Shown here piece after piece: positions 8,851-27,790 of a stretch of 64,000 nt of DNA. The notes beneath the pieces are model-generated. The model was not told where the DNA came from, did no database searches, and saw only the letters and a list, made by a program, of their open reading frames with translations. Every line of letters starts with the position of its first letter. The first letter of the stretch is position 1. The position numbers were made by a program, and so were the translations under genes. Origin of the DNA: an uncultured Anaerolinea sp. (GTDB lineage Bacteria > Chloroflexota > Anaerolineae > Anaerolineales > UBA4823); contig CAYQDU010000001.1 in the NCBI GenBank assembly GCA_964416275.1, positions 6,830 to 70,829 on the forward strand, in the 5' to 3' direction.

Positions 8851-8863
8851 GCTCCCCTCCTGG

Positions 8864-11080
8864 TTACAGCAGATAGGGCAGGTCAATCGCGAAGGTTGTT
8901 CCGCCCAACACGCAGCTATCGACGATATAAATTTTCCCCCCCAGCGATTCGATCAGGCTGCGTGAGATATACAGGCCGATCCCGCTGCCATCCGGGCGGG
9001 TGGTGTACCCGGCTTCAAACACCGTTTCCCACAGGCGATAGTGAATTCCCGGCCCATTATCTTCGATGCAGATGCGCAGCGTAGCATTTTTATCCGATCC
9101 GCCGGAGGTTTCCATCGAAATCTTCACCCAGCCGCCGCGCTGCGGGCGCCACTCATTGATCTGTTGGATGGCGTTGAGCAGCAGGTTGAGCAGGATTTGC
9201 TCCAGGGCGGCCGCCTGGGTGCGGACAATCGCCATTTTAGACGGCGAGATAAACTGGATGACCACGTGATTATCGTCGCTCTGCTTCTTGAGCAGGTGAA
9301 CCACTTCCTGAATGATCTCGTCGATGCGCAGCATTTCGGTCTTGCTTTTGACGATAATGCGGGCAAAAGCGCGCATCGACTGGATGATCGTATCAACGTG
9401 GTTCTGGACTTCTTGCAGCCCGGCGCGGGCCAGGCTGACCTGCCCGGCCTGGGCCTGGCCGGCCGGCTGGCCGGCCAGCGCCGCGTTTAAACAATCTTCT
9501 ACGTTTTCGATCTGGATAGTGAGCCGCCCGGCGATGTTGTTGGTTTCATGCACCATGGCGCTGCTGACGTGGCCCAATAGCGCGCTGCGCTGGATGCTGG
9601 TGGCCTGTTCTTGAAAGGCGGCCCGCTCCAGAATGGAGGCAATCGCCAGGCAGGTAGCCGCTACATAGGTGTTCGCCTCCGGCGAGATGCGCTTCGGGCG
9701 GCTGTCCAGGGCTGCCAGGGCGTAGTTGCGCTTGAAATGCCCCTGGACTGGCGCTGCAATACAGGCTTCCAGGGGGTAGTATTCCAGTAGATAGCGGAAG
9801 CGGTCGTGCTGTTCGCGCGGCAGCCGCTCGATGGAAATCGTCTCGCCGTCTTCGGCCACATCTCGCACCGGGCTGTAGATCAACCCGGCCAGGGCTTCTT
9901 TGCGGGCCAGCCCATCGCCCGATTTCTGCACCATCTCAATCGAACGCTGCCCTGGGTCGAGGGCAAACAGCATAACCGCCTCGAAGCCGATGGCTTCATG
10001 GCATTGGTTCAGCAGGGCCTGGATGGCGCGTTGGGCCGGCAGGCGCGAGACATCGAGCAGCGAGAAGTCTTTGCCCAGGGCCGGCGGTAGTTCGGCCCGG
10101 TCGGCTGTCGCCGGCGGCCTTTGCAGCAGCACATCCAGCAGGTCCTCCGGCAGCAGCGGGCGGATCAGCAGGCTGACCCCGGCGGCCTGCAGGCTCTCCA
10201 GGGCCTGCATGTGTTCGTTTGCGCTGGCCCAATCCGTCATCAAGATGACGCGCACATCCGCGCCGGCTTCCAGAATGCGCCGGACTACCTCCAGCCCGTT
10301 CATGTCGGGCAGTCCCAGGTCGATAAAAACAATGTCGGCCGGGTCGTTTCGCAGCAGCTCCAGCCCCTGGCGGCCCGAATCGGCGCTGTCTACCCGCTGG
10401 CCGACGTGTCTCAGCCAGGCCGTCACCACGCCCGATTGGTCGTGGTTGTCGTCGATAACCAGGATGTGCTTCTTGGGGTGGTTTTCCAATAAAAACCTGT
10501 CCAGCGGCGAGCGGCGGCGCGCCCCACCCCCGCCAGGCGGCGGCTGCACCTCGCCGCCTGCCCGCTCTGGCCCGCTGCGCTGCGCCAACCCCAGGCTGAT
10601 CCGCCGCCGGATGGGGTCGATCTCGCGGATTACCACACGCACCCGGTCGCCCGGCCAGAACAGGTCGAGCGGGTCTTTCTGCCTGGGCACCCACTCTGGC
10701 AGATTGCTGCGATGCAGCAGCCCGGTCAGCCCTGAATTCAGCTCGACAAAAGCCCCGTAAGCCAGCACACCGCTGATGGCGCCTTCGACTTCCTGGCCCT
10801 TATAGGCCAGCTCATGAATCCGTTCCCAGGGGTCGTCTTGGGTCAGCCGCAGGCTGAGGTCGATATGCCCGCCGGTCTCGTGCTGATCCAGCGCTACGGC
10901 CAGGCCGCTCCAGTTGAGCGGGTACAGGCTGCGCCAGTTGCTGCGCTCGTGGGCGTCCCACGAGATTTCTCGCACCCGCACGATCCCGCTGCGCCCGTCT
11001 TCCAGTTCCATCAACAGGCCCAGCGGCAGGTGGCGGATCACTTTGCAGCGCAGACTTTTGCGTTTCTTCGAGCCATCCAT
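8864..11080 (-). CDS. S1-S1-receiver-GAF-histidine kinase fusion
   Basis: 738-aa ORF. Two S1 RNA-binding folds (KVIRHLPLGLLMELEDGRSGIVRVREISWD...IDLSLR; GQEVEGAISGVLAYGAFVELNSGLTGLLHRSNL...GDRVRVVIREIDPIRRRISLGL). Receiver (ILVIDDNHD...IVFIDLGLPDMNG) and a GAF-like region. H-box MVHETNNIAGRL; HATPase boxes LLNLLLNAIQQ, EDNGPGI, GSGIGLYISRSLIESLGG. Confidence 0.85.
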   Translation of the reverse strand: MDGSKKRKSLRCKVIRHLPLGLLMELEDGRSGIVRVREISWDAHERSNWRSLYPLNWSGLAVALDQHETGGHIDLSLRLTQDDPWERIHELAYKGQEVEGAISGVLAYGAFVELNSGLTGLLHRSNLPEWVPRQKDPLDLFWPGDRVRVVIREIDPIRRRISLGLAQRSGPERAGGEVQPPPGGGGARRRSPLDRFLLENHPKKHILVIDDNHDQSGVVTAWLRHVGQRVDSADSGRQGLELLRNDPADIVFIDLGLPDMNGLEVVRRILEAGADVRVILMTDWASANEHMQALESLQAAGVSLLIRPLLPEDLLDVLLQRPPATADRAELPPALGKDFSLLDVSRLPAQRAIQALLNQCHEAIGFEAVMLFALDPGQRSIEMVQKSGDGLARKEALAGLIYSPVRDVAEDGETISIERLPREQHDRFRYLLEYYPLEACIAAPVQGHFKRNYALAALDSRPKRISPEANTYVAATCLAIASILERAAFQEQATSIQRSALLGHVSSAMVHETNNIAGRLTIQIENVEDCLNAALAGQPAGQAQAGQVSLARAGLQEVQNHVDTIIQSMRAFARIIVKSKTEMLRIDEIIQEVVHLLKKQSDDNHVVIQFISPSKMAIVRTQAAALEQILLNLLLNAIQQINEWRPQRGGWVKISMETSGGSDKNATLRICIEDNGPGIHYRLWETVFEAGYTTRPDGSGIGLYISRSLIESLGGKIYIVDSCVLGGTTFAIDLPYLL

Positions 11081-11086
11081 AGGCGG

Positions 11087-12235
11087 TCAGGCCGGCGTTT
11101 CCGGTTCTTCGAAAGTAACCCCTGGCAGCCCCTGTTCGGGCGGATAGGGCAGGCGGAACACGGCCTGGGCTTCGCCCAGGTCGGCCATATCTTGCAGGCG
11201 CTCGAAGTTGGGGGCCAGGGCGGGGTTGGGCAGCCGTTCCAGCCAGTAGATCTGCGGCTCCCATAGGCGGCTGTCGTTGCGGGTGGTTGGACGCTTGATC
11301 TGGTAGCCCCACATCATGGCGTCGGGCCTGGCCGAGCGGGTCAGAGCCGAGCCAACCGCCCGGCTGACGAAATCGGGGACGAAAGTGGGCGAGGCCAGCC
11401 GCACCTGCACGAAATAGGGCCGGGTCAGCCCGGCCAGGCGGCGGTCTAGCTGAGTAGCCGTCTTGAAGGCAAACGGCTGGGCAAAGTGCAGGTCGTTGTT
11501 CTTGCTGATCCGGCTGGCTTGCTCGCTCAGGCGGGTGAGCAGCAGCCGTTCGTACTGCTGCAAGACGGTGGGGCGCAGCAGCAGGTCGAGCAGCACCGGC
11601 TCGGGGCTGCCCGCCAGGGCGCGCCAGATTTGTTCGTCCGAACGGTCGATGGTCTCCCAGGCTTCGGACAGGTAGAGCATCTCCTGGCCGCTGTTGAAGG
11701 CGCTGTTGAAGCGGCAGATTTGGGCCAGGCCGTCGGCCGCGCTCACCTGGCGCAGAATGTCCCACCCGGCCAGGCGGTGGAATTCGTCTTGCGTGGCGGC
11801 CGGGCGCAGGATGTAGTCGATGGGGAAAATCGAGCGCAGCTCGTACCAGAAGGCGCAGGCCGCCTGGCGGGCAACCTCCTGGGTTGGGGCGCACACCTTC
11901 GCGAACAGGCTTAACAGCAGGCCGGGCTGTCCTGGGGAATGTACAACGCGCAGCGCCAGGCTGCGTTTTTCGGGCCACTCATCCTGGGCGGTGCAGTCGT
12001 TGATGTGCAGGGCTTCGATGAACAGGCGCTGCCGGTCGCGGGCCTCATCCCACAAAAAAGCAGGGCTGAAGCCCCATTTGAACTTGAGTAAATCCTGAAA
12101 AGGCCGGATGAACACCTGGCAGGCGATCACCGCCTGCCACAGGTAGGCGAACGTGCGGTCTAACGGGGCTTTGCTTTCCAGGTCGGGCAGGGTGTTGCTT
12201 TCGCCCAGCTCGACCCAGGGTAATGTTTCGGCCAT
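11087..12235 (-). CDS. Hypothetical protein (orphan, 382 aa)
   Basis: SD GGGAGG before ATG 12235, and the stop is 6 nt from the next gene. Balanced coding-like composition, no TM, no motif I can assign. The competing same-strand ORF 10812-11978 is Arg/Pro/Gly shadow. Confidence 0.6.
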   Translation of the reverse strand: MAETLPWVELGESNTLPDLESKAPLDRTFAYLWQAVIACQVFIRPFQDLLKFKWGFSPAFLWDEARDRQRLFIEALHINDCTAQDEWPEKRSLALRVVHSPGQPGLLLSLFAKVCAPTQEVARQAACAFWYELRSIFPIDYILRPAATQDEFHRLAGWDILRQVSAADGLAQICRFNSAFNSGQEMLYLSEAWETIDRSDEQIWRALAGSPEPVLLDLLLRPTVLQQYERLLLTRLSEQASRISKNNDLHFAQPFAFKTATQLDRRLAGLTRPYFVQVRLASPTFVPDFVSRAVGSALTRSARPDAMMWGYQIKRPTTRNDSRLWEPQIYWLERLPNPALAPNFERLQDMADLGEAQAVFRLPYPPEQGLPGVTFEEPETPA

Positions 12236-12259: not shown

Positions 12260-13345
12260 TTACTTTTTGGACGGCGGCGGCATCAGTTGGTTCAGGCTGG
12301 CGCTGAGCAGCGTTAGCGGGGTCGAACTGGCCGCCGAAGAATCGGACATCGAGCGCGTGATGCTGTCGATAACCCGCGCCTCATCGCCGTTGAGCATAAA
12401 GCCTTTCGCCGCCAGGCCCTGCAGCATGGTTTCCAGCGCCTTGGCCCGCGCCTGGATGCTTGCCATGGCTTCCTCGTGCTGGTGATCGGGCAGCTTGCGC
12501 AGCCGTTCGATTTCGGCCTGCAGCACATCCATCTGATAGTGCAGTTCCGCCCGCTGGACGGCGAACTCGTCGCGCAGCTTCGCCAGCTCGGCTTCTTGCT
12601 CGGCCTGTATTTTGTTGGCTTCGCCCTGGCGGCGCAGGAGCTGCTCGCGCTGATCGACCAGTTCTTTCTCTTGCTGAAGCTTGTCTTTCTCGGCGCTGGT
12701 CTTCTTTTCCTGCACCTGGCGGGCCTGTTGGATTTCGAGCAGGGCCGGGTCGCCCTGGCGGCTGGTTACCTGAACGTCGAGGATGGCAAACCCCCGGCAG
12801 GCCTGGATCTGGCCGATCTCATGCGTGACATAGCGCTGGATGACGGCGTCGTCAACCCGCAGGCGGTCCTGGCCCTGGGCCAGCTCATCGTGTTTATGGG
12901 ATTGGATAAAGCTCTTGAGAATGGTGGTGGCGGAGGCCAGCAGCACGTTGATCGGCTGGTCGATGCTCATCACAGCCAGCGGGTCCTTGACCTGCCAGTT
13001 CAGGTTGATTGCCAGCCCGACCTGCGGTCCATCCGCCGAGCGGGCTGTGACCACCGGCAGACTGGTCAGATGTTTGCGTTGATCGACGTAGTGGAGGCTG
13101 TAGACGCCGGCGGGCAGGTCTGCATACCCGCCGCGCTCGATCAGGATGCGCTGCCCGTGGGGTGCCGTCAGCACAGCGGCGCAGTCCGGGTAGACATAGA
13201 GATAGTCGGCGCCAAACTTTCCGGTGGTGAAGCTGGTGGGCGGGGTAATGATCTGATTCCCAAACTGAGGCGGAACGCCCCGTTTGCGGCTGCCCTGATA
13301 TTCTACCCAGCTACGCAGCAAACGTTTCCAAAGATCATCAGACAT
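12260..13345 (-). CDS. SPFH/Band-7-like protein with long C-terminal coiled coil, no membrane anchor
   Basis: 361-aa ORF with SD AAGGAGG before ATG 13345. SPFH-like core (VVTARSADGPQVGLAINLNWQVKDP...ILKSFIQSH). It is followed by E/Q/K/L/R heptad-rich sequence (KDKLQQEKELVDQREQLLRRQGEANKIQAEQEAELAKLRDEF...). No N-terminal hydrophobic segment. Confidence 0.65.
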   Translation of the reverse strand: MSDDLWKRLLRSWVEYQGSRKRGVPPQFGNQIITPPTSFTTGKFGADYLYVYPDCAAVLTAPHGQRILIERGGYADLPAGVYSLHYVDQRKHLTSLPVVTARSADGPQVGLAINLNWQVKDPLAVMSIDQPINVLLASATTILKSFIQSHKHDELAQGQDRLRVDDAVIQRYVTHEIGQIQACRGFAILDVQVTSRQGDPALLEIQQARQVQEKKTSAEKDKLQQEKELVDQREQLLRRQGEANKIQAEQEAELAKLRDEFAVQRAELHYQMDVLQAEIERLRKLPDHQHEEAMASIQARAKALETMLQGLAAKGFMLNGDEARVIDSITRSMSDSSAASSTPLTLLSASLNQLMPPPSKK

Positions 13346-13564: not shown

Positions 13565-14152
13565 TTAGCGGTATGCACCTTCGATCAATATCTGGCCCTG
13601 GCCCAACTCAACCCGCTCAATCGACACTGGCAGGGCCTGGGCCTGGGCCAGTTGAGCCTGGAATTCTTGCTGGACGGCCTGCAGAATGAAATCGGGGGCG
13701 GCCGCCCCGCCGACGGTGATGGATTGTAGATCGACCAGGGGCCGGCCGTCTCCCGCTCCTACCCAGGCTCGCCCGGAGACCGGCGTGCGCAGCCCCAGGA
13801 TGTAGGCGACGCCGCCGGCGGTCACCCCCTGGGGGTCGATGGCGATGCGCGGGTGGCTGAACGGCACATTGGGGTGGCGGGCCAGGAACCAGGCCACCGC
13901 CTCGGAGGCCATCTGGTCGGTGACGACGATCTCGAAGCGCTGCCCGCTGGCCTGGCCGGAGAATAGCTTCTCGCGGATGGCGGCAATCTGCGGGTCGAGG
14001 CGCGGCTCGACCGCCGCCTGGAGAGTGAGCGGGGCCAGGCCCAGCCAGGCCAGCCCGTTTGCCAGCAGCAGGGCCAGGGCAAACCACAGGCTGGCCCGAT
14101 GTGGGCCAGCCCGCGCCGGGCCAGCCCGGCGGCGGACGTGGGCGGCGCTCAT
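13565..14152 (-). CDS. Membrane-anchored hypothetical protein (195 aa), translationally coupled partner of the giant membrane protein
   Basis: ATG 14152 overlaps the TGA of the upstream gene (ATGA). Arg-rich N-terminus, then one TM (LWFALALLLANGLAWLGLAPL), with the rest predicted outside the membrane. No family assignable; the resemblance to LmeA/DUF2993-type proteins is weak and unverified. Confidence 0.6.
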   Translation of the reverse strand: MSAAHVRRRAGPARAGPHRASLWFALALLLANGLAWLGLAPLTLQAAVEPRLDPQIAAIREKLFSGQASGQRFEIVVTDQMASEAVAWFLARHPNVPFSHPRIAIDPQGVTAGGVAYILGLRTPVSGRAWVGAGDGRPLVDLQSITVGGAAAPDFILQAVQQEFQAQLAQAQALPVSIERVELGQGQILIEGAYR

Positions 14153-17100
14153 TCCCAGGCCTCCAGGCGGGCGCGCAGCTCTTCCGACAGGCCCTTGAGC
14201 GCTTCCAGGCGGCGTTCGATCAGCACCGCCAGCCCCACCAGGATCAGCCCGGCCACGGCAAACACAATCCAGCGGTTGGCCGATAGAAGCGGCTCAATCA
14301 ATTGGGCCGTCACGTCGAGGGTCAGCCCGGCTACCCCGGCGTACAGGAAGCGCCGCAGGCGGCGGGCGCTGCCCCACCAGGCCAGCAGCAGGCACTCGAC
14401 CCCCATCCACAGGGCGTAGCGCCCGCCATTGGCCCCCCGCGCTTGCCAGAAAGACGCGCCGAGCAGCAAAATCACCGCCGCCCAATCCACCCAACGGGCC
14501 AGATCGCGGCTGCCCAGGCGGCGTTCCAGATAGCCCAATGCCAGCAGATAGACCCCCGCCGGCGCGGCGTAAATTTGCGCCTCGCGCTGGCCCCAGGCCA
14601 GGAGCAGCTCCAGGCTCCAGGCGACCAGCAGCAGGGCCACCGAGGCGTAGCCCAGGCGCAGCCGCCGGTCGGCTGTGGCCGAAGCCAGGAGGAACAGCCC
14701 GGTCACGGCCAGCAGGCTCACCAGGCGCTGCACGTTGGGCAGGTCGGCCGGCTGCACCAGACGCGTCCCCAGGGCGACGCGGATCGCCAGCCCTGGCACA
14801 TCGACGTACAGGGCCAGCCCGCCCGCCAGCCCCGCCAGGGTTGCCAGCCAGCCGGCATGCACCAGGGGCCGTTCCCATAAGGCCCGGCGCGGGTCCATCG
14901 CGCCCCGCGCCGGGCTGCGCCGCGCCAGCCGCAGGCCATACCCGGCCAGGCCGTAGCCCAGGGCCAGCAGAGCCAGGTTGGGCGGCAGATCGGCCAGGGG
15001 CGCGCCCAGGGTGAACAGGCGTTGGAGCAGGGCCAGCCCGCCCAGGGCGGGGGGCAGGTAGGCCAGCCAGGGCAGCCGCCATAGGCTGGCAAATCCGCCG
15101 ATCAACAGGCCGTTCGACAGGCTGAGAGCCGCGCTGGACGGCCCCAGGCGCAGGCTGACGGCCTGCGTGATGAGCAGGTCGGCCAGGACGAGCAGGTGCA
15201 GCGGGCGCGACCAGCCGGAGAAGCGGGCTTCGCCCCGGCGGCGCTCGCCGGCTAGCCCGGCCAGGGCTGTCAGCCAGGTTGCGGGGGCAAAGGCCAGGGC
15301 CAGCCAGTCGCCGGGCGGGCGGCCGGCGTGCAGGCCCCACCACCGCAGCCCGGCCAGCAGCGCCAGTTGAGCCGCCGCCCCGGCCACCAGCAGCCAGGCC
15401 GGTTTGCGGAAGTATGCCGTCGCCAATCCATAGGCCAGGGCTGCCAGGGCCAGGGTCAGCGGCAGCCGGTCGGGGTAGGATAGGGCCAGCAGGGCGCTCC
15501 CGGCGGCCAGCAGATAGGCCAGCCCGAACAGCGGCAGCGCCCACCAGCGCAGGATGACCTGCCAGGGGGGCAGCGCCGAGCCGTCGTCCAGGGTCGCTTT
15601 TCCGTTCGTCCACTCCAGCAGGTGCGCCAGCCCCAACAGGGCCGCAATCATCGGCCACAGCCCCAGGCCGTAATCGACCGGCTGCATCCCCCGGTCGAGC
15701 AGCCAGCTCCAATAGGGCGGCAGGGCCAGCCCGCCGGCGGCGGTCAGCAGCAGCGGCCAGCGCCGCCAGGCGGCCAGCAGAGCGCACAGCAGGGCGGCGG
15801 CGCTGTAGCCCACCTGCACCGCCCGGCGGTCGAAGCTGGTGAAGGGCAGCCCGGCGTAGATCAGCAGGAAGATCGGGATCAACAGCGCCCGCCCGGCCTG
15901 GGCGGCGAAGGGGGGCGCGGCGGCTGCCTGCGCCGGTCGCCGGTCGAGCAGGAAGCCGAAGATCAGGTACAGCCCGGCCACGCCCAGCAGCCCCCAACCG
16001 TATTGCTCGCGCGGGGCCAGGCGCTCGGCCAGGGTGAGCATCACGGCCAGCGGCAGAGTAACGGCCGCCAGGTAGACCCAGGCGGTCTGCCGGAACCACA
16101 CCGCCGACAGGCCCAATACCAGCCCGGCGAACAGCAGCCCCGCCGCCAGGGCCGCCGGCTGCGAGAGCAGGCCCAGCAGGCCAAACCCCAGGGCGGCATA
16201 GGCCAGGGTGTAGAACGGGCGGGCGAAGCGTGCGCCGGTCGGCAGGCTGCGCCGCTCGATCCAGCGCCCCAGCCCCAGGCCGGGCAGGACGAACAGCAGC
16301 CAGATCAGCCCGGCCAGCGTGGGCGGGGCGGCCGGGAAGGCTATAGCAAGGCGGGCCAGCGCCCACAGCGGCGGCGCAAACACAGCCGGATATAGGAAAC
16401 GGGCCGAGCGCAGCCCGCCGCGCAGGTCGATCACCAGGGCCGAAAGATAGAACACCAGCATCAGCCCAAAGCCCTGGCTGGCCCAGGCGGCCCGGGCCTG
16501 TGCCAGCAGCAGGCCTACCAGGATCAGGCTATGGGCCACGGCCTGCGGCGGCCGGCCGAGAAGCCTGGCCGGGCCTTTCAGGCCCAGGCTCATTCCTCCA
16601 CCGATCCATAGCAGCAGCACGGCCAGCATCGCCCAGGCAACCCCATAGCCCACAGCTTCCAGCCGCCCGGCCCGCCAGAGCTGCAGGGCCATCAGCGACC
16701 AGGGGGCTACCGCCAGGCCGGAGGCCAGCCAGGCCAGGCGCAGGGCGGTTTTGGGCTGGCGGCGGTAGAGATAGACGCCCAGGGCAAACAGGCCGCACAG
16801 CGTCCCCAGGGCGGCCGCCGACCAGCGCTCGCGCAGCGGCCCGCCGCCCAGAATCGCCAGGTTGCGGATCAGAGACAGGAACAGGGTCAGCGCAGCGGCC
16901 AGCCAGGCCCCGGTCTGCAGGGGGCGGCGGAACACCCGCCAGGCCGGGCCGCCGCTGGGGCGGCGGGGGGTGCGGGCGTAGGCATACAGGGCGCGCTCGC
17001 CCAACAGGAAGGCGGCCGCCAGCAGAGCGGCCAGAAAGGCCGAACGCCCGCTGCCCCGGCTGAAATGAGCCGCCGCCAGCCCGGCTGAAAACAGGGCCAG

Positions 17101-19959
17101 CCACACGGCCAGGTGGGCTTCTTCGCTGCGCCGGGTTTGCCAGGCGTAGCGGGCCGCCGCCAGGGCCAGCTCGAGCAGGCTGGCGACGATCCACAGGCAG
17201 GCCGGCGCATCCAGCCCGATCTCACCCAGGCGAACCAGGCCGGCGATGAGCAGGCCCAGGCTGCTGGCTCCAGCGGCCCCGGACAGGGCCCGCGGCGGGG
17301 TTAAGCGCCGGTTGGGCGGGGCAAAGGGTCGCTCCAGCCGCCCGGCCAGCCAGATATAGACCAGCGGCAGGCTGCACAGGATGAAGAGGCTGCGCTCGCC
17401 GGGCAGTTTAGCCCACAGCAGCCCAGAGGCCAGGCCAACCGGCAGCAGCAGCCCGCCCGCCAGCAGCCCGACTGGCTGGCGGGCGGCAAACCCGGCGGCG
17501 AAATAGAATCCTGCCAGCAGCAGCAGCGCCAGCGACGGCCAGCCTTCCTGGTAATAATCGAAAGCGTAATACCCGGCCAGCAGCGCCCCGATTTGGGCCG
17601 CCCGACGCCAGGGGCGGGCGTAGGCCGGGCGCTGGCGCCGCATCCAGAGCATGGCCGCCAGTAGCGCCCAGGCTGCCCCGCTCAGGCCCAGGCCGAAGAA
17701 TTCGTCGGGGGAGCGCCGGGCGGTCCAGGCGAAGTAGAAAGCGGCCAGCAGCAGCAGCGCGGCCCAGGTATGGAAAAAGGCGGGGCCCAGGCGCCCGCTC
17801 AGGCTGAAGGCTGCGCGCCGGGCGGGAAGGTTGGGGCGGCCGGCCGTGCGGCGGTCTGGGCGCAGCAGCTCGGCCAGGCCGGGCGGCGCGGCGTGCGCCA
17901 GCCAGGCCAGCCACAGGTTCAGCCCGGCCCAGTTGCCCAGGGCGTAGGCCAGCCCGCCGCGCTCGCTCGCCGTCAGGGGCGGCCCAACGGCCAATCCGCC
18001 GATCAACCAGGCGCACACGAACAGCGGCCTGGCAAAGCCCCCCGCGCCGCGCCCTGCCAGCCATGCCGCCGCGCCCAGGTGCAGGATCGCCAGCAGCGCC
18101 CAGGCCAGCCCCAACTGCACCGGGCTGCCGTGGATGGCGTCGATCCAGCCGGCGGCGGCAGAGAGAAGCAGCAGCCCGGCGGCATAGAGCCAGCCCGGCC
18201 GCCGGCCGAACCGGGCCGCCAGCATAGCCGACCCGGCCAACAGCAGGTGGACCGCGGCCACGACGCTGGCCTGGCGCAACGCCCACAGGCCGGCCGCCAG
18301 CGCCAACAGCCCGGCCAACCGGCCCAGCAGGCGGGCGGCGTAGGCGAGCCGGGCGCCCGGCTCGCTGGCGCGCTCCAGGCGATGGGCCGCCCACAGGTAC
18401 AGCGGCGTGACGGCGGCCAGCCCCAGGGCGCGCCAGGTGGGGGAGCCGTGCAGATGGGCCAGCAGGGCGTCGGCGGTCAGCCAGGCCGCCCAGGGCAGGC
18501 CGAGGGCCGCCGCCCAAATCAGCTCGCGCCGCCGCAGGCGCAGGGCGCTCCAGGCGAACACCGCCCCGGCCAGCCAGCTGGTGAGGGCCTGGGCCAGTCG
18601 TTCGATCTCGTCCAGGGGCGCGGCGGGGATGCGGCGGGTAAGCCCAAAAATCAGCAGCACGCCTGTCCCCAGCACGGCGGTTTGCCAGAAGGGGCGGGCC
18701 AGAACGCGCCACCGCCGGGCCAGCGTTGATCCGCTTGCCGACGAGAGCCAGTCTGCCATCCCGGCCAGGAGCAGCCCTATCGCCCCCAGGAGCGGGGCCC
18801 GCCAGGCCGGGTCGGCCCCGGCGGTTTGCAGCAGGGCCGCGGCCAGGCTGCCCAGGGCCAGGGCCGCCAGATAGCCGAAGAATTCGGCTTGCAGTCGGTA
18901 GACCGTGAACAGGTAGGCGCCCAGGCAGACCAGCGAGGCCAGCAGCCATACTTCCGGCCAGCGCTGGGCGGGAAAACCGCCGGAGAGGTAGAAGGCGTAA
19001 AAGTCCAGCGGGGCCAGCAGCGACGCCACCGCGCTCAGCGCCAGGCCCGATCCGGGCAGCTTCATGCGGGCGCGCACGTACCAGCCCAGGCCGTAAAACA
19101 GGCCGGTGAACCCTGCTAAAAAGGTTACTTGCAGCCAGGGTGGGAAAGCCTGCCAGTTCCACACCACCAGCGAGACGGCCGCCGCAAACAGCAGTCCCGC
19201 CCCCAGGAACAGCAGGGCGTTCAAGGTGCGCTGCGAGAGCAGCGATTCGGATACCTGCTCCCAGGTGAGGGGCGGGCGCAGCGCGGCCGGCCGGGCAGCC
19301 GGGGCTGGCAAAACAGCGGCTGGGGCCGGGGCGGGCGCAGGAACGGCTGCCGCCGGTGGAGCGGCCGCCTGATCCGGCGCAGCCGATACGCGGGCCGCCA
19401 GCCGGGCCAGGTCTTTTTCCAGTTGTCGCAGGTTGGCCTGGTAAGCGCGGGAGTCTAAGATTTGCCCGCTTTGCGCCAGGGTCAGCAGGGCAGCCCGCTG
19501 CGCCTGCCAGTTGGCCTGGGCCTGTTCGATGGGCGGCGGGGTGGGCTGGTCTGGAACGCCGGCGAGCCGATCCTGCAGCCCGGCGATGCGTTCGGCGGCC
19601 GCCTGGCGCAGTTGGCGGGCGGTTTCGGGCGCAATGGCCCGGCTGCGCTGCCAGCGCAGGGCCGCTTCTTGCAGGGCGGTTTGCTCGGCCAGGGTCTGCT
19701 GGGCCTCCAAGGCATCCGCCTCCGAAAGCGGAGCCGGGCGCAGGCCCAGTTCAACTTCCATCTCATGCGCCTGTTGGGCGTAGCGCTGCGCCAGCGCCCG
19801 GCGGTAGCTGGCTGGAACCTCACCCCATCCATCGATTTCGGCCAGCAGGTAGCGCAGCCGATCCAAAGCCTCCAACCGGGCAGGCTCGGCCTGAAAACCG
19901 CAGGTGGGGCATGGCTCTGGCGGATGGATTTCGCTCTGCTGGCAGCCTGGGCAGCGCAC
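14149..19959 (-). CDS. Giant polytopic membrane protein (1936 aa): N-terminal zinc ribbon, helical/coiled-coil region, Ala/Pro linker, roughly 45-50 TM segments
   Basis: 5.8-kb uninterrupted ORF. GTG start 19959 with SD AAGGAG (19967-19972). CPGC-x10-CPTC ribbon. The remainder is a run of about 20-aa hydrophobic segments separated by short R/W/P/G loops (counted by eye). Third codon positions are strongly G/C. Alternative same-strand frames are RPG-rich shadows. Confidence 0.8.
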   Translation of the reverse strand: MRCPGCQQSEIHPPEPCPTCGFQAEPARLEALDRLRYLLAEIDGWGEVPASYRRALAQRYAQQAHEMEVELGLRPAPLSEADALEAQQTLAEQTALQEAALRWQRSRAIAPETARQLRQAAAERIAGLQDRLAGVPDQPTPPPIEQAQANWQAQRAALLTLAQSGQILDSRAYQANLRQLEKDLARLAARVSAAPDQAAAPPAAAVPAPAPAPAAVLPAPAARPAALRPPLTWEQVSESLLSQRTLNALLFLGAGLLFAAAVSLVVWNWQAFPPWLQVTFLAGFTGLFYGLGWYVRARMKLPGSGLALSAVASLLAPLDFYAFYLSGGFPAQRWPEVWLLASLVCLGAYLFTVYRLQAEFFGYLAALALGSLAAALLQTAGADPAWRAPLLGAIGLLLAGMADWLSSASGSTLARRWRVLARPFWQTAVLGTGVLLIFGLTRRIPAAPLDEIERLAQALTSWLAGAVFAWSALRLRRRELIWAAALGLPWAAWLTADALLAHLHGSPTWRALGLAAVTPLYLWAAHRLERASEPGARLAYAARLLGRLAGLLALAAGLWALRQASVVAAVHLLLAGSAMLAARFGRRPGWLYAAGLLLLSAAAGWIDAIHGSPVQLGLAWALLAILHLGAAAWLAGRGAGGFARPLFVCAWLIGGLAVGPPLTASERGGLAYALGNWAGLNLWLAWLAHAAPPGLAELLRPDRRTAGRPNLPARRAAFSLSGRLGPAFFHTWAALLLLAAFYFAWTARRSPDEFFGLGLSGAAWALLAAMLWMRRQRPAYARPWRRAAQIGALLAGYYAFDYYQEGWPSLALLLLAGFYFAAGFAARQPVGLLAGGLLLPVGLASGLLWAKLPGERSLFILCSLPLVYIWLAGRLERPFAPPNRRLTPPRALSGAAGASSLGLLIAGLVRLGEIGLDAPACLWIVASLLELALAAARYAWQTRRSEEAHLAVWLALFSAGLAAAHFSRGSGRSAFLAALLAAAFLLGERALYAYARTPRRPSGGPAWRVFRRPLQTGAWLAAALTLFLSLIRNLAILGGGPLRERWSAAALGTLCGLFALGVYLYRRQPKTALRLAWLASGLAVAPWSLMALQLWRAGRLEAVGYGVAWAMLAVLLLWIGGGMSLGLKGPARLLGRPPQAVAHSLILVGLLLAQARAAWASQGFGLMLVFYLSALVIDLRGGLRSARFLYPAVFAPPLWALARLAIAFPAAPPTLAGLIWLLFVLPGLGLGRWIERRSLPTGARFARPFYTLAYAALGFGLLGLLSQPAALAAGLLFAGLVLGLSAVWFRQTAWVYLAAVTLPLAVMLTLAERLAPREQYGWGLLGVAGLYLIFGFLLDRRPAQAAAAPPFAAQAGRALLIPIFLLIYAGLPFTSFDRRAVQVGYSAAALLCALLAAWRRWPLLLTAAGGLALPPYWSWLLDRGMQPVDYGLGLWPMIAALLGLAHLLEWTNGKATLDDGSALPPWQVILRWWALPLFGLAYLLAAGSALLALSYPDRLPLTLALAALAYGLATAYFRKPAWLLVAGAAAQLALLAGLRWWGLHAGRPPGDWLALAFAPATWLTALAGLAGERRRGEARFSGWSRPLHLLVLADLLITQAVSLRLGPSSAALSLSNGLLIGGFASLWRLPWLAYLPPALGGLALLQRLFTLGAPLADLPPNLALLALGYGLAGYGLRLARRSPARGAMDPRRALWERPLVHAGWLATLAGLAGGLALYVDVPGLAIRVALGTRLVQPADLPNVQRLVSLLAVTGLFLLASATADRRLRLGYASVALLLVAWSLELLLAWGQREAQIYAAPAGVYLLALGYLERRLGSRDLARWVDWAAVILLLGASFWQARGANGGRYALWMGVECLLLAWWGSARRLRRFLYAGVAGLTLDVTAQLIEPLLSANRWIVFAVAGLILVGLAVLIERRLEALKGLSEELRARLEAWE

Positions 19960-19999
19960 CGGGCAACTCCTTGTCCTGGCTTACAGGTTGACTCACCCG

Positions 20000-20005
20000 A
20001 TTATA
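20000..20005 (-). promoter_or_regulatory. Candidate -10 element for the giant membrane protein gene
   Basis: Perfect TATAAT on the minus strand, about 35 nt upstream of the SD/GTG. No convincing -35. Confidence 0.3.
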
Positions 20006-20043
20006 GTGCAAAACGGGCGCTTTTACGCGGGGCAGATTTGCCG

Positions 20044-20105
20044 GCAGCTCCCCGCTCAACTGTGGTGGAGGCGACTGGCAAATCGGCGCCGCAGCCGAAA
20101 ATCTC
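20044..20105. repeat. Partial copy of the dispersed hairpin-module repeat
   Basis: GCAGCTCCCCGCTCAACTGTGGTGGAGGCGACTGGCAAATCGG aligns with 55727-55770 (GCTAGCTCCCCACGCAACCGTGGTGGAGGTGACTGGCAAGCTTGG). Confidence 0.45.
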
Positions 20106-20133
20106 CCATCTTTCTCGTTGCGAAGTCGGCAGG

Positions 20134-22605
20134 TCAGAAAAGGCGGGCCAACCACAGGCGGAACTGGAGCGCCTGCCAGGCGCTGATTGCCTGGCCGGCG
20201 GTTTGCCGGTCGGGCGGGTGTAAGCTGTAGGCCGAGCGGGTATAAGGGTCTACGATGCGGTGGGCCTGGGTGGGCGCGGCGGCCAGGGCGCGGCGCACCC
20301 GGCGACGCAGCCAACCCGTCCAGCGCGCCCCATCGGCCGGCAGGCCTGCCCACCAGACCTGCCACTGAGCGGCGAACTCATAGGGGGTCTGGCCGGGCGG
20401 CTGGGGCAGGGCCAGGCGTTGCCCGGCCCGGCGCAGGCGGATATATACTTCGGCCAGGGCCAGGCCGGGCGGCAAACGGCGCAGGCGCAGCCCGTCGATC
20501 CAGGCGGCCGCGCCGGCGGCCAGGGCCAGCAGGGCGGCTGCGCCGGCCAGCAGGCCCAGCCCGCCGCGCATATAGGGGATGGCGGCCTGGATGGCCGCCC
20601 AGGCCGCGCGCCAGGCCGACCTCAGGCCGCCGCCCGCCGGCCCGGCGGGCGGCCTGGCCGGCAGCGGGGCCGGCGGTTGAAGCGACTGGCTGGGGCGCTC
20701 CAGCGGCGGGCGGGAACTGGTCGGCTCGAAGGCCACCCAGCCCAGGCCGCTGAAGTAGATTTCAGGCCAGGAATGGGCTTCGGCCTCGGTGACGCGGAAG
20801 GCGGGGCGGAGCGGGTTGACGGAGGCGAGCGGAGTTCCTTGTGCGTAGCCAACAACCAGCCGGGAGGGCAGCCCGGCCGCCCGGGCCAGCACCACCATAG
20901 CCGTGGCGTAATAATCGCAGTAGCCCCGCCGCACGCCGAACAAGAAATAGGCGCTCAAATCCTGGTCGGACGGCGGAGCGGGCAGGTCGAGGCTGTAGGG
21001 GTAGCGGCGCAGGAAACGCTCGATGGCTTTGGCCCGGTCATAGGGGGTATCGGCGCTGCCGCCCAGGGCTGCCCCCAGCGAGCGCACCCGCCCCGGCAGG
21101 CTGGCGGGCAGGGCCAGGTAGCGTTCCCTGATCCAGCCGGGAGGCGGATCGAGCGCCCGGCGCAGATCGGCCTCCCCGGCCAGCAGGCGGCGGGCCTGCA
21201 CCCGGTAGGCCCCGCCGGGCGGCGGCTGGGGCAGCCAGGCCCGGAACAGGTCGGCCTCCAACTCCGGCGCGCTGCGCCAGTTGGCGGCAAACGGCTGGTT
21301 GAGGCCGGTCAATTGACCGGCGAAGTAGACCTGCACCGGCTGCGGCTGCCCGGCCGCGTCGAGGGTTGCTGCGCCAGGTAGCTGCACCGTCAGGGTCAGC
21401 GGGGCGGCGGGCCCCGGCAAGGTGGATGAAACCGGCTGGCCGGGCGGATAATCCTCTCGGCGCGTGGGGCTGGTCAGCCAGCCATGCCCGGTGTAGATGT
21501 CGTAAGCGGCGGCGGCCCAATAGAGCGGCGGCGGGCGGCGGGCGTCGATGGTCTGCGGCCCATCATCCACCCTGACCTCCATCACCACCTGCTGGCCCAG
21601 CTCTGGCCCGGCGCCGATCAGGCGGCTGCGGGGCAGGACGCCTGGCAGCGGCGGGGGTGGGGTAGGGGTGGGCGGCGGCTGTAAGCCTAAGGATTGGCTC
21701 AGTTGGGCGTTGGCTTCGGGCGGGGCTTGCAGCAGGCGCTGAAGTGCATCCAGCGTGCCTTGCGGCGAGATGCGGGCCAGCAGATAAGCCAGCGAGATCA
21801 CCCCCAGCACCTGCGCCAGGGTCCACAGGCTCAGATCGAAGGCCAGGCCCTCGGCGCTGTCGATCTGACGGCGCTGCCAATCGGCGCGCTGCTGGTCGAA
21901 TGCCAGCCAGGCCATCAGCCCCAGGGCGGCCCCCAGAGTGGGCAGCAGGTACAGCGGCGAGGCCCGACTGAAGGCCAGGGCGGCGGCCAGCAGCCCGGCG
22001 GCCGGCAGGCTGGCCGCCAGGGCGCTGCGCCGCTGGCGCAACCGCCAGCCGGCCCAGGCCCCGACCGCCCACAGCAGCAGGCCCCACGCCAGGCCGGTCG
22101 CCAGCGGGTCGGCCTGGGCGGCGCTGCGGCCCAGGCCGGTCGCCCAGGCCACGCTGCGCCCGGCCAGCAGGGCCAGGCGCAGGCGCAGATCGTCCAGGGC
22201 GGCCAGAAACGGCCAGGGAGCGGGCAGGGCGGCTCCGGGCCGCCACAGCCAGAGCGCATCCAGCCAGCGCAGCCCGGCCAGCCCGGCCGCCAGCAGGCTG
22301 CCCGCCAGCCGCCCGGTGTGGAGCAGGTTCCACATCAGCCCGGCGACGGCCAGCCACAGGGCGACCCCCACCCCCTCAGCCGGGGCCCGCCTTGAGGCCT
22401 CTCCAGGGGGGGAGATGCGCGCTAGCCACCAGGCCAGCAACGCGCCGAGCAGGGCGCTCAGGGCCAGGGCGTTCTCGTCCAGGGTGGGGGCGGCCTGGCC
22501 CAACCCCAGGGCCACGCTGCCCAACAGCAGACCCAGCAGGCCGCCGCCTACCAGGGGGCCGGGGCCAACTCTGCGCAGCAGCCAGGCCGCCAGGCGCTCG
22601 ATCAT
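20134..22605 (-). CDS. TgpA-like membrane transglutaminase
   Basis: 823-aa ORF with an N-terminal multi-TM region. Transglutaminase core RGYCDYYATAMVVLARAAGLPSRLVVGY ... AHSWPEIY ... WVAFEPT (Cys-His-acidic triad). C-terminal TM. Confidence 0.8.
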   Translation of the reverse strand: MIERLAAWLLRRVGPGPLVGGGLLGLLLGSVALGLGQAAPTLDENALALSALLGALLAWWLARISPPGEASRRAPAEGVGVALWLAVAGLMWNLLHTGRLAGSLLAAGLAGLRWLDALWLWRPGAALPAPWPFLAALDDLRLRLALLAGRSVAWATGLGRSAAQADPLATGLAWGLLLWAVGAWAGWRLRQRRSALAASLPAAGLLAAALAFSRASPLYLLPTLGAALGLMAWLAFDQQRADWQRRQIDSAEGLAFDLSLWTLAQVLGVISLAYLLARISPQGTLDALQRLLQAPPEANAQLSQSLGLQPPPTPTPPPPLPGVLPRSRLIGAGPELGQQVVMEVRVDDGPQTIDARRPPPLYWAAAAYDIYTGHGWLTSPTRREDYPPGQPVSSTLPGPAAPLTLTVQLPGAATLDAAGQPQPVQVYFAGQLTGLNQPFAANWRSAPELEADLFRAWLPQPPPGGAYRVQARRLLAGEADLRRALDPPPGWIRERYLALPASLPGRVRSLGAALGGSADTPYDRAKAIERFLRRYPYSLDLPAPPSDQDLSAYFLFGVRRGYCDYYATAMVVLARAAGLPSRLVVGYAQGTPLASVNPLRPAFRVTEAEAHSWPEIYFSGLGWVAFEPTSSRPPLERPSQSLQPPAPLPARPPAGPAGGGLRSAWRAAWAAIQAAIPYMRGGLGLLAGAAALLALAAGAAAWIDGLRLRRLPPGLALAEVYIRLRRAGQRLALPQPPGQTPYEFAAQWQVWWAGLPADGARWTGWLRRRVRRALAAAPTQAHRIVDPYTRSAYSLHPPDRQTAGQAISAWQALQFRLWLARLF

Positions 22606-22607
22606 GC

Positions 22608-23927
22608 TTACAGTCGCCTCCAGGGCGCGTCTTGGGCGGGGTTGACCACCCGTACCCCGCCGGTGGGGGTGACTTTTAGCTCTGGCCGGCCGCGCCGCCC
22701 CGGCTGCGCCTCCGGACGGTCGAGCAGATCGGGGGTGATGCGCTGGTGAGCGATGCCGCGCTCCGTTAAGAGATTGAGAATTTCTGATTTCTGGTCGCCG
22801 GCTTTAGCCGGATCGAAGGCCGCGGGGTCGAGCAGGAGCAGGGTGGGGATGGCGCCTTTCCACATCAGCGGCAGCAGGGTGGGCAGCCAATCGCCGGAGA
22901 TGTTGGCGGTGATGATGACCAGGCTGGACGGGCCGTTCAGGCTGGCCTCCAGGCCGGCCAGCAGCTCCGCCAGGGGGCGCTCGCCCGGTTCAAGCAGGGC
23001 CAGGGCGCGCAGGATGGCGTAGCGATGAAAATCGCCCTGGCGGGGCGGCAGCCAGGCCAGCGCCTGGCTCTCTGGCAAGCGGGCGGTTGCGCCGCTGGCG
23101 ATCAACCCCACCGCCCGGTTGAGACGCAGACCCCGGTCGGCCAGCGAGGCGGCCAGGATCACGCCATGCTCCTGGGTGGAGCGCGCTCCCTGCCCGGCCT
23201 GGACGGCCCGGTTGGCGTCGAGAATGATCCACCAGTCGCCGGAGGGTGTGCTTTCAAAGGTGCGCACGTAGGGCTTGCCGCGCCGGGCGGTGGTGCGCCA
23301 GTGCATCCAGCGCAGGCTGTCGCCGGGGACGTACTCGCGCACGCTGGCCGCGCTGACGGTGCGCTCGGCCAGGTTGGGGCGCGGGCGGCCCTGCCCGGCC
23401 TTGCCGCCGGGGGCCACCTCGATGTGCGGCAGCGGCACCACCGGCGGCGTAACCATCAACTGCACCGCGTGCGGGTTATGCAGCGTCACCGAGAACAGGC
23501 CCAGCGGGTCGGCGGTGCGCAGGGTGGTAGGGCCAAGGGTGAACAGGCCGCGCCGGGTGCAGGTTACTGTGGTGTGCCAGGCGCTGTGCGAGCCGCCGTC
23601 GGCCCCGGTGGCCTGGCTGGCCTGGCTGCCTGGCAGGGTGGAGTGGTCTTGAATCTCCACCCACAGGGCCGGGGCCAGGCCGCGGTTGAACAGGGTGAAA
23701 CGCTCTTCCAACTGGTCGCCCACCTGGGCCCAGCCAAAGCGCATCTCGCGCTCCAGGTGCAGCCCGCTCGCCAGCGAGCGGGCCCACAGCCAGCTCAGCC
23801 CCAGCGCTCCGCCCAGGCCCAGCAGCAGGAAGCGCCAGCCGGTGTAATCGTCGGCCAGGGCCAGGATCAGCAGCAGCCCAATGAGCAGCAGCAGCGGGCG
23901 GGCGTGACTTTGAATGGATGGTTTCAT
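22608..23927 (-). CDS. DUF58 (vWA-like) protein
   Basis: 439-aa ORF ending 2 nt before the transglutaminase start. Two N-terminal TMs. DUF58 signature REYVPGDSLRWMHWRTTARRGKPYVRTFE. Confidence 0.8.
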   Translation of the reverse strand: MKPSIQSHARPLLLLIGLLLILALADDYTGWRFLLLGLGGALGLSWLWARSLASGLHLEREMRFGWAQVGDQLEERFTLFNRGLAPALWVEIQDHSTLPGSQASQATGADGGSHSAWHTTVTCTRRGLFTLGPTTLRTADPLGLFSVTLHNPHAVQLMVTPPVVPLPHIEVAPGGKAGQGRPRPNLAERTVSAASVREYVPGDSLRWMHWRTTARRGKPYVRTFESTPSGDWWIILDANRAVQAGQGARSTQEHGVILAASLADRGLRLNRAVGLIASGATARLPESQALAWLPPRQGDFHRYAILRALALLEPGERPLAELLAGLEASLNGPSSLVIITANISGDWLPTLLPLMWKGAIPTLLLLDPAAFDPAKAGDQKSEILNLLTERGIAHQRITPDLLDRPEAQPGRRGRPELKVTPTGGVRVVNPAQDAPWRRL

Positions 23928-23993
23928 CGGCGAGGACGAGAAAAAGTGGGCGCCGGGCAGCTGCCCGGCGCGCCTGCCCGGCGGCGAGGGCGC

Positions 23994-25199
23994 TCAGCCC
24001 TGGCGCGCTGTTTTCAGCATTTGCTTCATCTGCTCCAGGTGGGTATTGAAATGCGCCGGCAGCTCGGTAACGGTGTAGGTCAGCCGCCAGAAGGCGCCCT
24101 TGCGTTCCTGCAGTTCCGGCGGCAGATAGGCGATCAGGCTGGCGGTTTCGTGATAGGCGCGCTTCAGTTCGTCTACCAACTCGCTGGCCCCAGGATAGGC
24201 GTCGACCGTGGCCCGCACGGCGGCGTCCAGGTTGCTGCCGAAGTCGTCGGCCCAGCGCTCCTGGCTCTCGGCCATCTCGACTACGAAGGCTTGAAAGCCG
24301 CGCTCGCTGTGGATCAGGTGGGCCAGAATTTCTTTGATGTTCCACTCCTGGGCAGGTTTGCAGGCCGCGTCGGCCTCGCTGACGTTTTGGAACAGCGCAT
24401 TCAATTCGTCGATAAATCTGGCCTGTATTTGCCGCAGGTAGGTTGCAAGGCCTTTGAGCGAAGCCGGGATTTCAGGCAGCGGGCGAGATGAGAGCGTCAG
24501 TTGCAGGGTCAGCTTTTGCGGGCCGCGATAGATCTCTACCGGGATGCGCTCATTAGCCCGGTGGCCGGCCAGGGCGGCGGCCAGGTCGTTAAACGAGCGC
24601 ACTTCGCGCCCGGCCAGCCCCACGATCACATCATTCGGCAGCAGACCGGCCGCCGCAGCCCCCATGCCCTGCACCACGCTTTCGATGCGCACCCCGCTTG
24701 TCGCCGGAACGCCCAACTCGGCGGCCTGAGCGGGGGTAAAGTCGTTCAGGTTGACGCCCAGCATCGGGCGGCGGGTGAAGCGTTCGTCTTCCCCGGTTTC
24801 CAGCACCGAGGCCAGGTTCTCCAGGCTGTCGCGCCAGCCTTTTTCAATCTCCTGCACGGTGCGGGTCCATTCCTGATCGTCTTCCGGCAGGGCGTGTTCC
24901 AGGATCACCCGCACGCCGCCTTCCTGGATCTGGCAGGTCACCCTCACCTGGCTGCGGGCCGGGTCGTCGCGGCCGTACCAGACGAAGTCCACTTCCTGCC
25001 CCGCCTCGACGCTGGTGTACTCGCCGCTGGCGTAGTAGCCGCTGTTCCAGGCCAGATACATCCGCCCGCCAGGGCGCGGATCAACCGTTGCGATGTCGCA
25101 CAGCCATTCGCGCAGCGCGCTGGCGTTGGTGAAGGCCCGGCAAACCTGTTCCGGGGTGGCCCGGATGTATTGCTCGAAGGTGAGAACACGGGTAGACAT
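23994..25199 (-). CDS. SRPBCC(AHSA1-like)-PDZ-DinB triple-domain protein
   Basis: N-terminus YIRATPEQVCRAFTNASALREWLCD...GGRMYLAW (SRPBCC/AHSA1-like). Middle LGVNLNDF...GVRIESVVQGMGAAAAGLLPNDVIVGLAGREV (PDZ). C-terminus WNIKEILAHLIHSERGF...HFNTHLEQM (DinB-like four-helix His pattern). Confidence 0.65.
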   Translation of the reverse strand: MSTRVLTFEQYIRATPEQVCRAFTNASALREWLCDIATVDPRPGGRMYLAWNSGYYASGEYTSVEAGQEVDFVWYGRDDPARSQVRVTCQIQEGGVRVILEHALPEDDQEWTRTVQEIEKGWRDSLENLASVLETGEDERFTRRPMLGVNLNDFTPAQAAELGVPATSGVRIESVVQGMGAAAAGLLPNDVIVGLAGREVRSFNDLAAALAGHRANERIPVEIYRGPQKLTLQLTLSSRPLPEIPASLKGLATYLRQIQARFIDELNALFQNVSEADAACKPAQEWNIKEILAHLIHSERGFQAFVVEMAESQERWADDFGSNLDAAVRATVDAYPGASELVDELKRAYHETASLIAYLPPELQERKGAFWRLTYTVTELPAHFNTHLEQMKQMLKTARQG

Positions 25200-27454: not shown

Positions 27455-27790
27455 TACCACCCCATTCAACCGTGGAGCAGGCCTGGCGCTCTTTGAGCGC
27501 CTTCAAGAAAGAGAAGCTGCCTGGATTTTGCCGCCCGAAGCGCGCCGCCCGAAGCGCGCCGCCCGAAGGCGAAGTTCGCCCGTCATTCTCCCCCCGGTTG
27601 AGTGGGGAACCGCCGCCAGACGATTCCTACCCGTTTTTGAAAGAAGAAAAGCGGCTCTTCCGGCCTGGCCGGGGAATTTTCTGTTACTGGAGGGTTGCGG
27701 GGGGCAGCGCCCCCTGCAATCCTCCAAGATCGGTTAGCTCCCGCCTCCGGCGGAAGAGCCAGAAATCTAGGGTTGACCCAAGATGCGGTT
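27455..27790. repeat. Intergenic mosaic of hairpin modules (dispersed repeat family), largest copy
   Basis: TACCACCCCATTCAACCGTGGAGCAGG + GGCGCTC-ttt-GAGCGCC (27485-27501) matches the reverse complement of 34300-34345. Degenerate GGATTTTGCCGCCC module. Further hairpins include GGAGGGTTGCGGGGGGC-agc-GCCCCCTGCAATCCTCC near 27690-27727. Confidence 0.6.
27530..27571. repeat. 14-bp tandem triplication inside the repeat element
   Basis: GCCGCCCGAAGCGC, GCCGCCCGAAGCGC, GCCGCCCGAAGGCG head to tail. Confidence 0.7.

Follow-up and report, generated by a model that had tools for sequence, protein, structure and literature searches.

The 64,000-nucleotide stretch analysed here (the window), part of contig CAYQDU010000001.1 of an uncultured Anaerolinea sp., encodes a 1936-amino-acid (aa) membrane protein, here called the giant, followed by a 195-aa single-pass partner. 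Most of the giant is a tandem array of 13 four-helix transmembrane (TM) repeats, and covariation between adjacent repeats indicates that these would stack into one continuous alpha-solenoid lying within the membrane; taken alone, this structural description is in our judgement very likely to be right. The gene is conserved in Chloroflexota, where it heads an operon that contains the partner and, at most loci, a PrsW-type intramembrane protease. The architecture is without a solved or described counterpart in the PDB and in the literature searched. As to function, we tentatively favour a fixed-length membrane scaffold, or a sensor of membrane or envelope state, that carries a cytoplasmic zinc-ribbon and helical-hairpin arm, a composite proposal to which we give somewhat less than an even chance.

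Thirteen four-helix repeats and their predicted topology

Comparison of the giant with itself, window against window in hhalign, gave scores of up to 103.6 (maximum of the reversed control, 26.2) at offsets that cluster at multiples of ~115 residues, and an iterated repeat hidden Markov model (HMM) covers residues 385–1897 gaplessly with 13 copies (Table 1). A first-pass annotation, made from the letters of the DNA, had proposed a search for internal repeats and had expected iterated 2-TM units; the unit found by profile self-comparison is instead one of four TM helices and ~115 aa, and a 2-TM sub-repeat within it scored 12.1, which is not significant. When the repeat HMM was run against all open reading frames (ORFs) of the window, the giant alone was matched. 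Within the family, 13 copies are detectable in 102 of the 120 complete proteins, with a range of 9–16. In more distant relatives (P0079–P0086 and P0063) the first TM module (R0, below) and the C-terminal modules flank 5–16 copies; one of them, P0080, has no zinc ribbon and begins with a TM helix, and some other distant relatives also do without the ribbon. Because the distant relatives hold 5–16 copies, evolution can alter the repeat number between subfamilies, whereas within the main one it is fixed.

The loops of the repeat alternate in charge. Lys and Arg are abundant in loops 1 and 3, where they reach 0.61 per position, but not in loops 2 and 4; the positive-inside rule then predicts that loops 1 and 3 lie in the cytoplasm and that both termini of the giant face it. 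The start of helix 2 is marked by an aromatic residue at model position 33, by R35 and by P36 (74% Pro). Counting five helices in R0, 52 in the repeats (13 × 4) and one closing helix, we predict ~58 TM helices, more than the 45–50 first estimated and well above the 38 of Piezo.

The closing TM helix runs on into a cytoplasmic C-terminal helix that bears the RLExWE motif, in which conservation is at least 90% at E1933 and at W1935. This Trp-containing motif ends most complete relatives as well as C-terminal fragments of the family, and the tail suggests a docking or recognition motif, either for a cytoplasmic partner or for the giant's own N-terminal domain. Conservation of the TM modules peaks at R0 (0.68, as mean column conservation), R6 (0.62) and R13 (0.71), R0 and R13 being the two best conserved, and seven polar residues of R6 and R13 are invariant (E988, R989, N1033, Q1795, E1812, D1825 and R1866).

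Predicted fold

AlphaFold2, run on residues 740–1936 of the giant with the family alignment, returned an all-helical model with a mean predicted local distance difference test score (pLDDT) of 85.8, in which each repeat has four helices joined by loops of 2–7 residues. A second line of evidence comes from mean-field direct-coupling analysis (DCA) of 1758 unique pairs of adjacent repeats (effective number of sequences, Meff, ~1400), from which the top 60 inter-helix couplings were taken. Forty-seven of these join sequence-adjacent helices in antiparallel register, 12 join helices i and i+2 in parallel register, and a single one falls at a helix separation of 3. The strongest i/i+2 couplings link H4 of one repeat with H2 of the next, across the border, and couplings are reproduced between both copies of each repeat pair. 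Since covariation thus shows i, i+1 and i+2 contacts across repeat borders, it indicates that the repeats form a continuous two-row TM alpha-solenoid and not a series of isolated four-helix bundles.

Such a plan is shared with the soluble alpha-solenoids (TPR, HEAT and designed circular tandem repeats), in which stacked hairpins likewise make i+1 and i+2 contacts. Foldseek found nothing at E ≤ 1e-3 for the giant model among the 50 PDB matches listed; those listed, all weak, are soluble TPR/HEAT solenoids and designed circular repeat proteins or toroids, among them Ctr9, importin-beta/CRM1, 7rdr and 6xr1, with E-values that are not significant. Unlike in the water-soluble solenoids, every repeat helix of the giant is hydrophobic and of TM length, and topology alternates from helix to helix. 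If the model is right, a single chain of ~58 TM helices forms a TM alpha-solenoid with no known counterpart, and the alpha-solenoid principle extends from soluble proteins into the bilayer.

N-terminal domain and R0 module

Ahead of the membrane array lies a cytoplasmic domain that opens with a Cys4 zinc ribbon, read correctly in the first-pass annotation, whose four cysteines (C3, C6, C17 and C20) are each at least 90% conserved among 54 homologues. The stretch of about 200 residues that follows is helical, as had been noted, but is not a generic coiled coil: between residues ~24 and ~197 hhalign resolves three tandem helical-hairpin repeats of ~57 aa, with pairwise scores of 51.5, 33.3 and 28.9 against reversed controls of at most 12.5, and in the family consensus the sequence LGLRP ends the first and third of them. 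The Ala/Pro-rich linker also recorded earlier lies where it had been placed, between the hairpins and the membrane. A profile of the N-terminal domain gave nothing significant against all PDB sequences, the weak matches being of zinc-ribbon type (anti-TRAP and L37e, for example), and a profile search recovered only fragments of the giant family, with no other architecture within reach of that word-limited search.

The first TM module, R0, resembles an annotated family. DUF2157 was among the Pfam families that the first-pass annotation had suggested checking, and residues 225–400, when scanned alone, match it (PF09925) with E=4.3e-9 and 36.7 bits (cut-off 32.4) over residues ~243–377 and profile positions 32–139 of 146. 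The whole-protein Pfam scan did not detect DUF2157, and the match arises only with R0 scanned alone; similarly, precomputed PF09925 flags on two relatives (P0077 and P0080) were not reproduced in whole-protein scans. Among R0 segments of homologues DUF2157 was the top family in nine of nine and the sole family in eight of nine, at scores of 20.8–30.5 bits, which lie below the cut-off. DUF2157 corresponds to the N-terminal TM region of LiaF; together with LiaI, this region has been united into one 4-TM sensory domain that serves the Lia/PSP envelope-stress response (PMC11237479). Like R0, which scores above the gathering threshold, DUF2157 is a multi-TM region that lacks an enzymatic motif, and it is linked to envelope-state sensing. 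The resemblance covers only ~7% of the giant, and the 13 repeats are unrelated to it: R0 was also considered as a fourteenth copy of the repeat and rejected, with an hhalign score of 19.9 that is within noise.

The earlier comparison of the giant with DUF2339-type membrane proteins did not hold. Such proteins are likewise polytopic with many TM helices, yet DUF2339 (PF10101) was absent from every whole-protein and segment scan at E-values of up to 1–10 (up to 0.01 for the homologue R0 segments).

Reality of the gene and its distribution

The local G+C content around the giant is 73%, and alternative frames there also hold ORFs of 584–690 aa, so ORF length alone is little proof of coding; a sceptic might hold that the giant is no gene at all but an open frame that owes its length to high G+C, or a product of mis-assembly. 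G+C at codon positions 1, 2 and 3 of the ORF is 0.76, 0.56 and 0.87, a frame-specific pattern that stays constant over nine consecutive 200-codon blocks. Full-length homologues that keep the architecture from end to end occur in 79 species-level genomes, and the structure prediction is confident, which also speaks against an artefact. Codon-position G+C and the conserved full-length homologues together refute that view, to which we assign practically no probability, and the giant is a real, conserved coding gene. Its ORF is unbroken in 59 related loci, free of the frameshifts that the first-pass annotation had named as a sign against a single product. The high G+C of the giant is largely a result of its amino-acid composition (Leu 20.6%, Ala 19.8%, Gly 9.4%, Arg 8.3%, Pro 6.4% and Trp 4.4%).

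The 5.8-kb ORF begins, as first described, at a GTG codon with its own Shine–Dalgarno-like sequence. The TATAAT hexamer reported upstream is likewise present, but a consensus scan of the minus strand near the giant gave no −35/−10 promoter pair, and the hexamer is best treated as a putative −10 element.

A homologue search that covered 5.8 billion proteins yielded ~78 full-length relatives of 1800–2100 aa, all annotated as hypothetical, with 32–46% identity over 100% of the query. An alignment of 54 sequences has 42 invariant columns and ~200 that are nearly so, distributed over residues 1 to 1935. In a phyletic scan of 185,579 species-representative genomes with a single peptide pattern, which may undercount, at least 79 loci with the giant were found, all in Chloroflexota, under labels that include Anaerolineae/Anaerolineales, Ardenticatenaceae, Caldilineaceae (including metagenome-assembled genomes of Caldilinea aerophila), Thermoflexales and Candidatus Aquidulcis. 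The repeat itself appears to be equally restricted. When the 13 repeats of the giant were made into a profile, 65 of 1.84 billion cluster representatives matched it at E ≤ 1e-3, nearly all of them collinear with the giant, as complete members or fragments of its family; the apparent ‘short relatives’ from this search were rejected as separate proteins, being such fragments. Judged by profile matching, the repeat occurs, among these representatives, only in the giant family.

Scans of the whole giant against Pfam and NCBIfam gave no match, and Pfam scans of single repeats, of the repeat consensus and of the shorter relatives assigned no family. Neither the whole-family profile nor that of the repeat found anything significant among all PDB sequences. 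In line with the earlier statement that the protein has no transporter, kinase or enzyme motif, Pfam and NCBIfam gave no signature of any of these for the whole protein or for single repeats. The literature that we searched holds no description of the family.

The conserved operon

The partner has an Arg-rich N-terminal tail, ~17 residues of which would lie in the cytoplasm, a TM helix at residues 18–37 and an alpha/beta domain of ~150 aa that is predicted to face outward, in agreement with the first reading of one TM helix and an extracytoplasmic domain. AlphaFold models it with a pLDDT of 90, the alpha/beta domain consisting of four long strands and two helices. The family of 43 partner sequences has no Pfam, NCBIfam or PDB sequence match. 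Foldseek gave no PDB match at E ≤ 1e-3 and TM-scores of at most 0.27, the best match being a weak one to CETP (2obd; E=1.3e-3, probability 0.99, TM-score 0.26), with further weak matches to lipopolysaccharide-binding protein (4m4d; E=0.02), ToxS and Bet v 1/START folds. We take this likeness of the modelled partner to lipid binders as a lead, not as an assignment.

Among the 49 loci with at least 2.2 kb of downstream sequence, 43 have the partner behind the giant in the same orientation, which supports a functional link between the two, and 32 have a PrsW gene between them. The distribution of giant and partner, which the first-pass annotation had proposed to examine together, thus shows the pair recurring across the family. 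Four loci obtained by exact protein look-up agree: a partner homologue with 44–53% identity follows the giant in each, and in two a PrsW-family gene sits between giant and partner with overlapping stop and start codons. Translational coupling, inferred earlier from the ATGA at which the stop codon of the giant overlaps the start codon of the partner, fits the window but is not universal, as one locus (L001) has a gap of 88 nucleotides (nt) and no overlap. All-against-all clustering of the flanking ORFs of 59 related loci showed that only the giant, PrsW and the partner are conserved. The conserved operon order is therefore giant, PrsW-type protease (at most loci) and partner.

In Bacillus subtilis, site-1 cleavage in the sigma-W pathway of envelope stress is the task of PrsW, which ties the operon to regulated intramembrane proteolysis in response to such stress. 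The copies in the giant operons keep the EExxK, FxxxEN and HxxxN motifs, by which the encoded intramembrane metalloprotease is predicted to be catalytically intact; in this the 32 operons resemble the PrsW–RsiW system. The partner also shares with the PrsW substrate a single-pass topology with the N-terminus inside and the C-terminus outside. In contrast to that system, no anti-sigma domain, zf-HC2 domain or sigma-factor gene was found in the giant, the partner or their conserved neighbours.

Possible function and alternatives

The membrane-shaping or envelope-scaffold role proposed in the first-pass annotation is still the most plausible reading. A scaffold or sensor is likelier than a catalyst because the giant consists almost wholly of lipid-embedded hairpins, the loops are minimal, there is no catalytic motif, the repeat number is fixed and the end modules are conserved; envelope-state sensing is proposed because both annotated relatives, DUF2157/LiaF-TM and PrsW, point there. 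On this proposal the giant would read or organise the state of the cytoplasmic membrane and envelope, its solenoid supplying a large lipid-exposed footprint. R0, R13, the tail and the central R6 could serve as docking sites, the zinc-ribbon and hairpin domain as a cytoplasmic arm for output or recruitment, and PrsW, under envelope stress, might act on the complex or on the partner.

Several observations weigh against this proposal or the model beneath it. The predicted template modelling score of the giant model is only 0.58, and the array may be straight, an arc or a ring. The DUF2157 match is barely above the cut-off here and below it in the homologues. The window contains no PrsW homologue, and about one-third of the related operons also lack one, so the protease is not obligatory in cis. 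Nor, across the 59 loci, is any hallmark of the Lia/PSP response (Toastrack/LiaF-C, LiaRS or PspA/LiaH) or any sigma or anti-sigma gene conserved beside the operon. Finally, the conserved polar residues of R6 and R13 could form a conduction or binding site, as opposed to belonging to a passive scaffold.

That last point leads to the suggestion that the giant is a channel or transporter, in which polar residues of R0, R13 and R6 would line a path for ions or solutes and the repeats would act as a regulatory or force-collecting arm, in the manner of Piezo blades. The conservation peaks at these three modules and the invariant residues given above are consistent with such a path. The tandem 4-TM array, moreover, shares the plan of Piezo, mechanosensitive channels described from eukaryotes, with 38 TM helices and, in each blade, nine 4-TM units (PMC5880808). 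This resemblance, in very large TM count and tandem 4-TM units, is architectural only: family and repeat profiles retrieved no Piezo chain from PDB sequences, no Piezo, channel or transporter match was found by sequence or among the 50 Foldseek matches listed, and the bacterial giant has no recognised pore module, beam or cap. Covariation, too, indicates a continuous two-row solenoid where Piezo has discrete four-helix bundles. On sequence, Foldseek and covariation we reject homology to Piezo, and we consider conduction or transport as the function of the giant to be decidedly unlikely. Another suggestion is that the giant handles lipids, as a platform that would extract, present or corral lipids or glycolipids for the outer envelope layers while the outward-facing partner supplies a lipid-binding ‘taco’ domain of TULIP/LmeA-like type. 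The giant is almost wholly embedded in lipid, and the best fold matches of its partner are to lipid binders (CETP, LBP, ToxS and Bet v 1/START); those matches are, however, weak, the partner has no sequence match to a lipid-binding family, and the operon has no conserved ATPase or other source of energy, for which reasons we regard this explanation as improbable, if deserving of some weight.

Lineages of the Anaerolineae type are filamentous, and the giant might instead be a purely structural element of filaments, such as a membrane fence, ruler or diffusion barrier at septa or cell–cell junctions, without any part in signalling. The genome scan matched Chloroflexota alone, for the most part under the labels Anaerolineae, Caldilineaceae, Ardenticatenaceae or Thermoflexales, and a repeat number held tightly at 13 suggests that length matters. 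Against this, no division or septum gene is conserved nearby and the occurrence of PrsW points more to regulation than to structure alone, and we would put the chance of a filament-specific role low. A more daring reading, which we think rather doubtful, is that the giant forms a single-chain ‘membrane corral’ whose 29 TM hairpins would bend round into a two-layer ring, closed or almost so. Its plan would be comparable to that of a c-ring or an LH1 fence, yet made from one chain. The conserved head (R0/DUF2157) would dock on the tail (R13, the last TM helix and RLExWE), the fixed 13 repeats would set the ring diameter, and the partner and PrsW would sit in the patch of lipid that the ring encloses. 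If true, the giant would represent a new class of membrane-organising proteins and would be the first TM alpha-solenoid.

More broadly, and again if the model is right, the operon would point to a previously unseen envelope system in Anaerolineae-type Chloroflexota, organisms that are abundant in wastewater, sediments and soils and whose cell biology is poorly understood. A natural membrane scaffold of fixed length would also be of interest to structural biologists and protein designers.

Feature coordinates and neighbouring genes

Table 1. Features of the giant gene, its product and the partner gene (window coordinates; residues are those of the giant unless stated).
Feature	Residues	Window coordinates	Strand	Basis
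Giant gene	1936 aa + stop	14149..19959	minus	GTG start (ORF list)
Partner gene	195 aa (partner)	13565..14152	minus	ATG start (ORF list)
ATGA stop/start overlap, giant TGA with partner ATG		14149..14152	minus	ORF coordinates
AAGGAG, Shine–Dalgarno-like, 7 nt before GTG		19967..19972	minus	Sequence read
TATAAT hexamer, candidate −10 element upstream of giant		20000..20005	minus	Sequence read
Cys4 zinc ribbon, cytoplasmic	1–22	19894..19959	minus	CPGC-x10-CPTC: C3-P-G-C6, ten residues, C17-P-T-C20
Three tandem ~57-aa helical-hairpin repeats, cytoplasmic	~24–197	19369..19890	minus	Sub-alignment hhalign
Pro/Ala-rich linker	~198–224	19288..19368	minus	Sequence and family alignment
R0 module, five TM helices, DUF2157-like	225–384	18808..19287	minus	Pfam PF09925
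Thirteen tandem 4-TM repeats of ~115 aa	385–1897	14269..18807	minus	hhalign, iterated HMM, AlphaFold
Repeat R1	385–506
Repeat R2	509–620
Repeat R3	615–750
Repeat R4	755–865
Repeat R5	861–967
Repeat R6	974–1095
Repeat R7	1105–1211
Repeat R8	1217–1324
Repeat R9	1319–1428
Repeat R10	1429–1545
Repeat R11	1552–1663
Repeat R12	1656–1800
Repeat R13	1797–1897
Last TM helix and cytoplasmic C-terminal helix	1897–1936	14152..14271	minus	One 40-residue helix in AlphaFold model
C-terminal motif ...RLExWE	1930–1936	14152–14172	minus	Family alignment

Next to the giant on its upstream side, and in the same orientation, lie a gene for an 823-aa transglutaminase-like protein (20134–22605, minus) and a DUF58 gene (22608–23927, minus), both with a G+C content of 70–75%; DUF58/transglutaminase pairs usually accompany a MoxR ATPase. 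Downstream of the partner is an SPFH/Band-7 gene (12260–13345, minus) whose product lacks an N-terminal TM helix and ends in a long coiled C-terminus, followed by a gene for a 382-aa soluble protein without a family match (11087–12235, minus). A link of the giant to the upstream DUF58 and transglutaminase genes or to the downstream SPFH gene was considered and rejected, as none of these genes is conserved at the other loci. From 14000 to 24000 in the window G+C climbs from ~62% to ~73%, and G+C at third codon positions (GC3) is 0.78–0.88 in every gene tested; because GC3 is high in all of these genes, the rise suggests the composition of membrane-rich proteins (Ala, Leu, Gly, Arg, Pro and Trp) as its cause, and not foreign origin. 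Further off, at 27684–29984 (minus), is an ORF of 766 aa that matches no Pfam family at E ≤ 0.001.

Regulatory genes also occur in the vicinity. MalT-like STAND/LuxR regulators (WHD_MalT, TPR_MalT and GerE) lie near the giant in several related loci (L003, 4978–7671; L006, 4576–7815; and L001, 25497–25787, at the locus end); they were not singled out by the neighbour clustering and, since regulators of this kind are likely to be frequent in the genomes concerned, are probably there by coincidence. The histidine kinases of the window show no conservation next to the giant in other loci. Downstream, from 2329 to 11080 (minus), runs a series of unusual signalling genes. Their products include a response-regulator protein of 1604 aa that carries about five GAF domains together with a histidine-kinase ATPase domain, a protein of 738 aa that combines S1, receiver and histidine-kinase ATPase domains, and a receiver–APH–TCAD9 protein of 569 aa. 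TCAD9 stands for ‘ternary complex associated domain 9’, and its presence suggests a system of conflict or of regulation.

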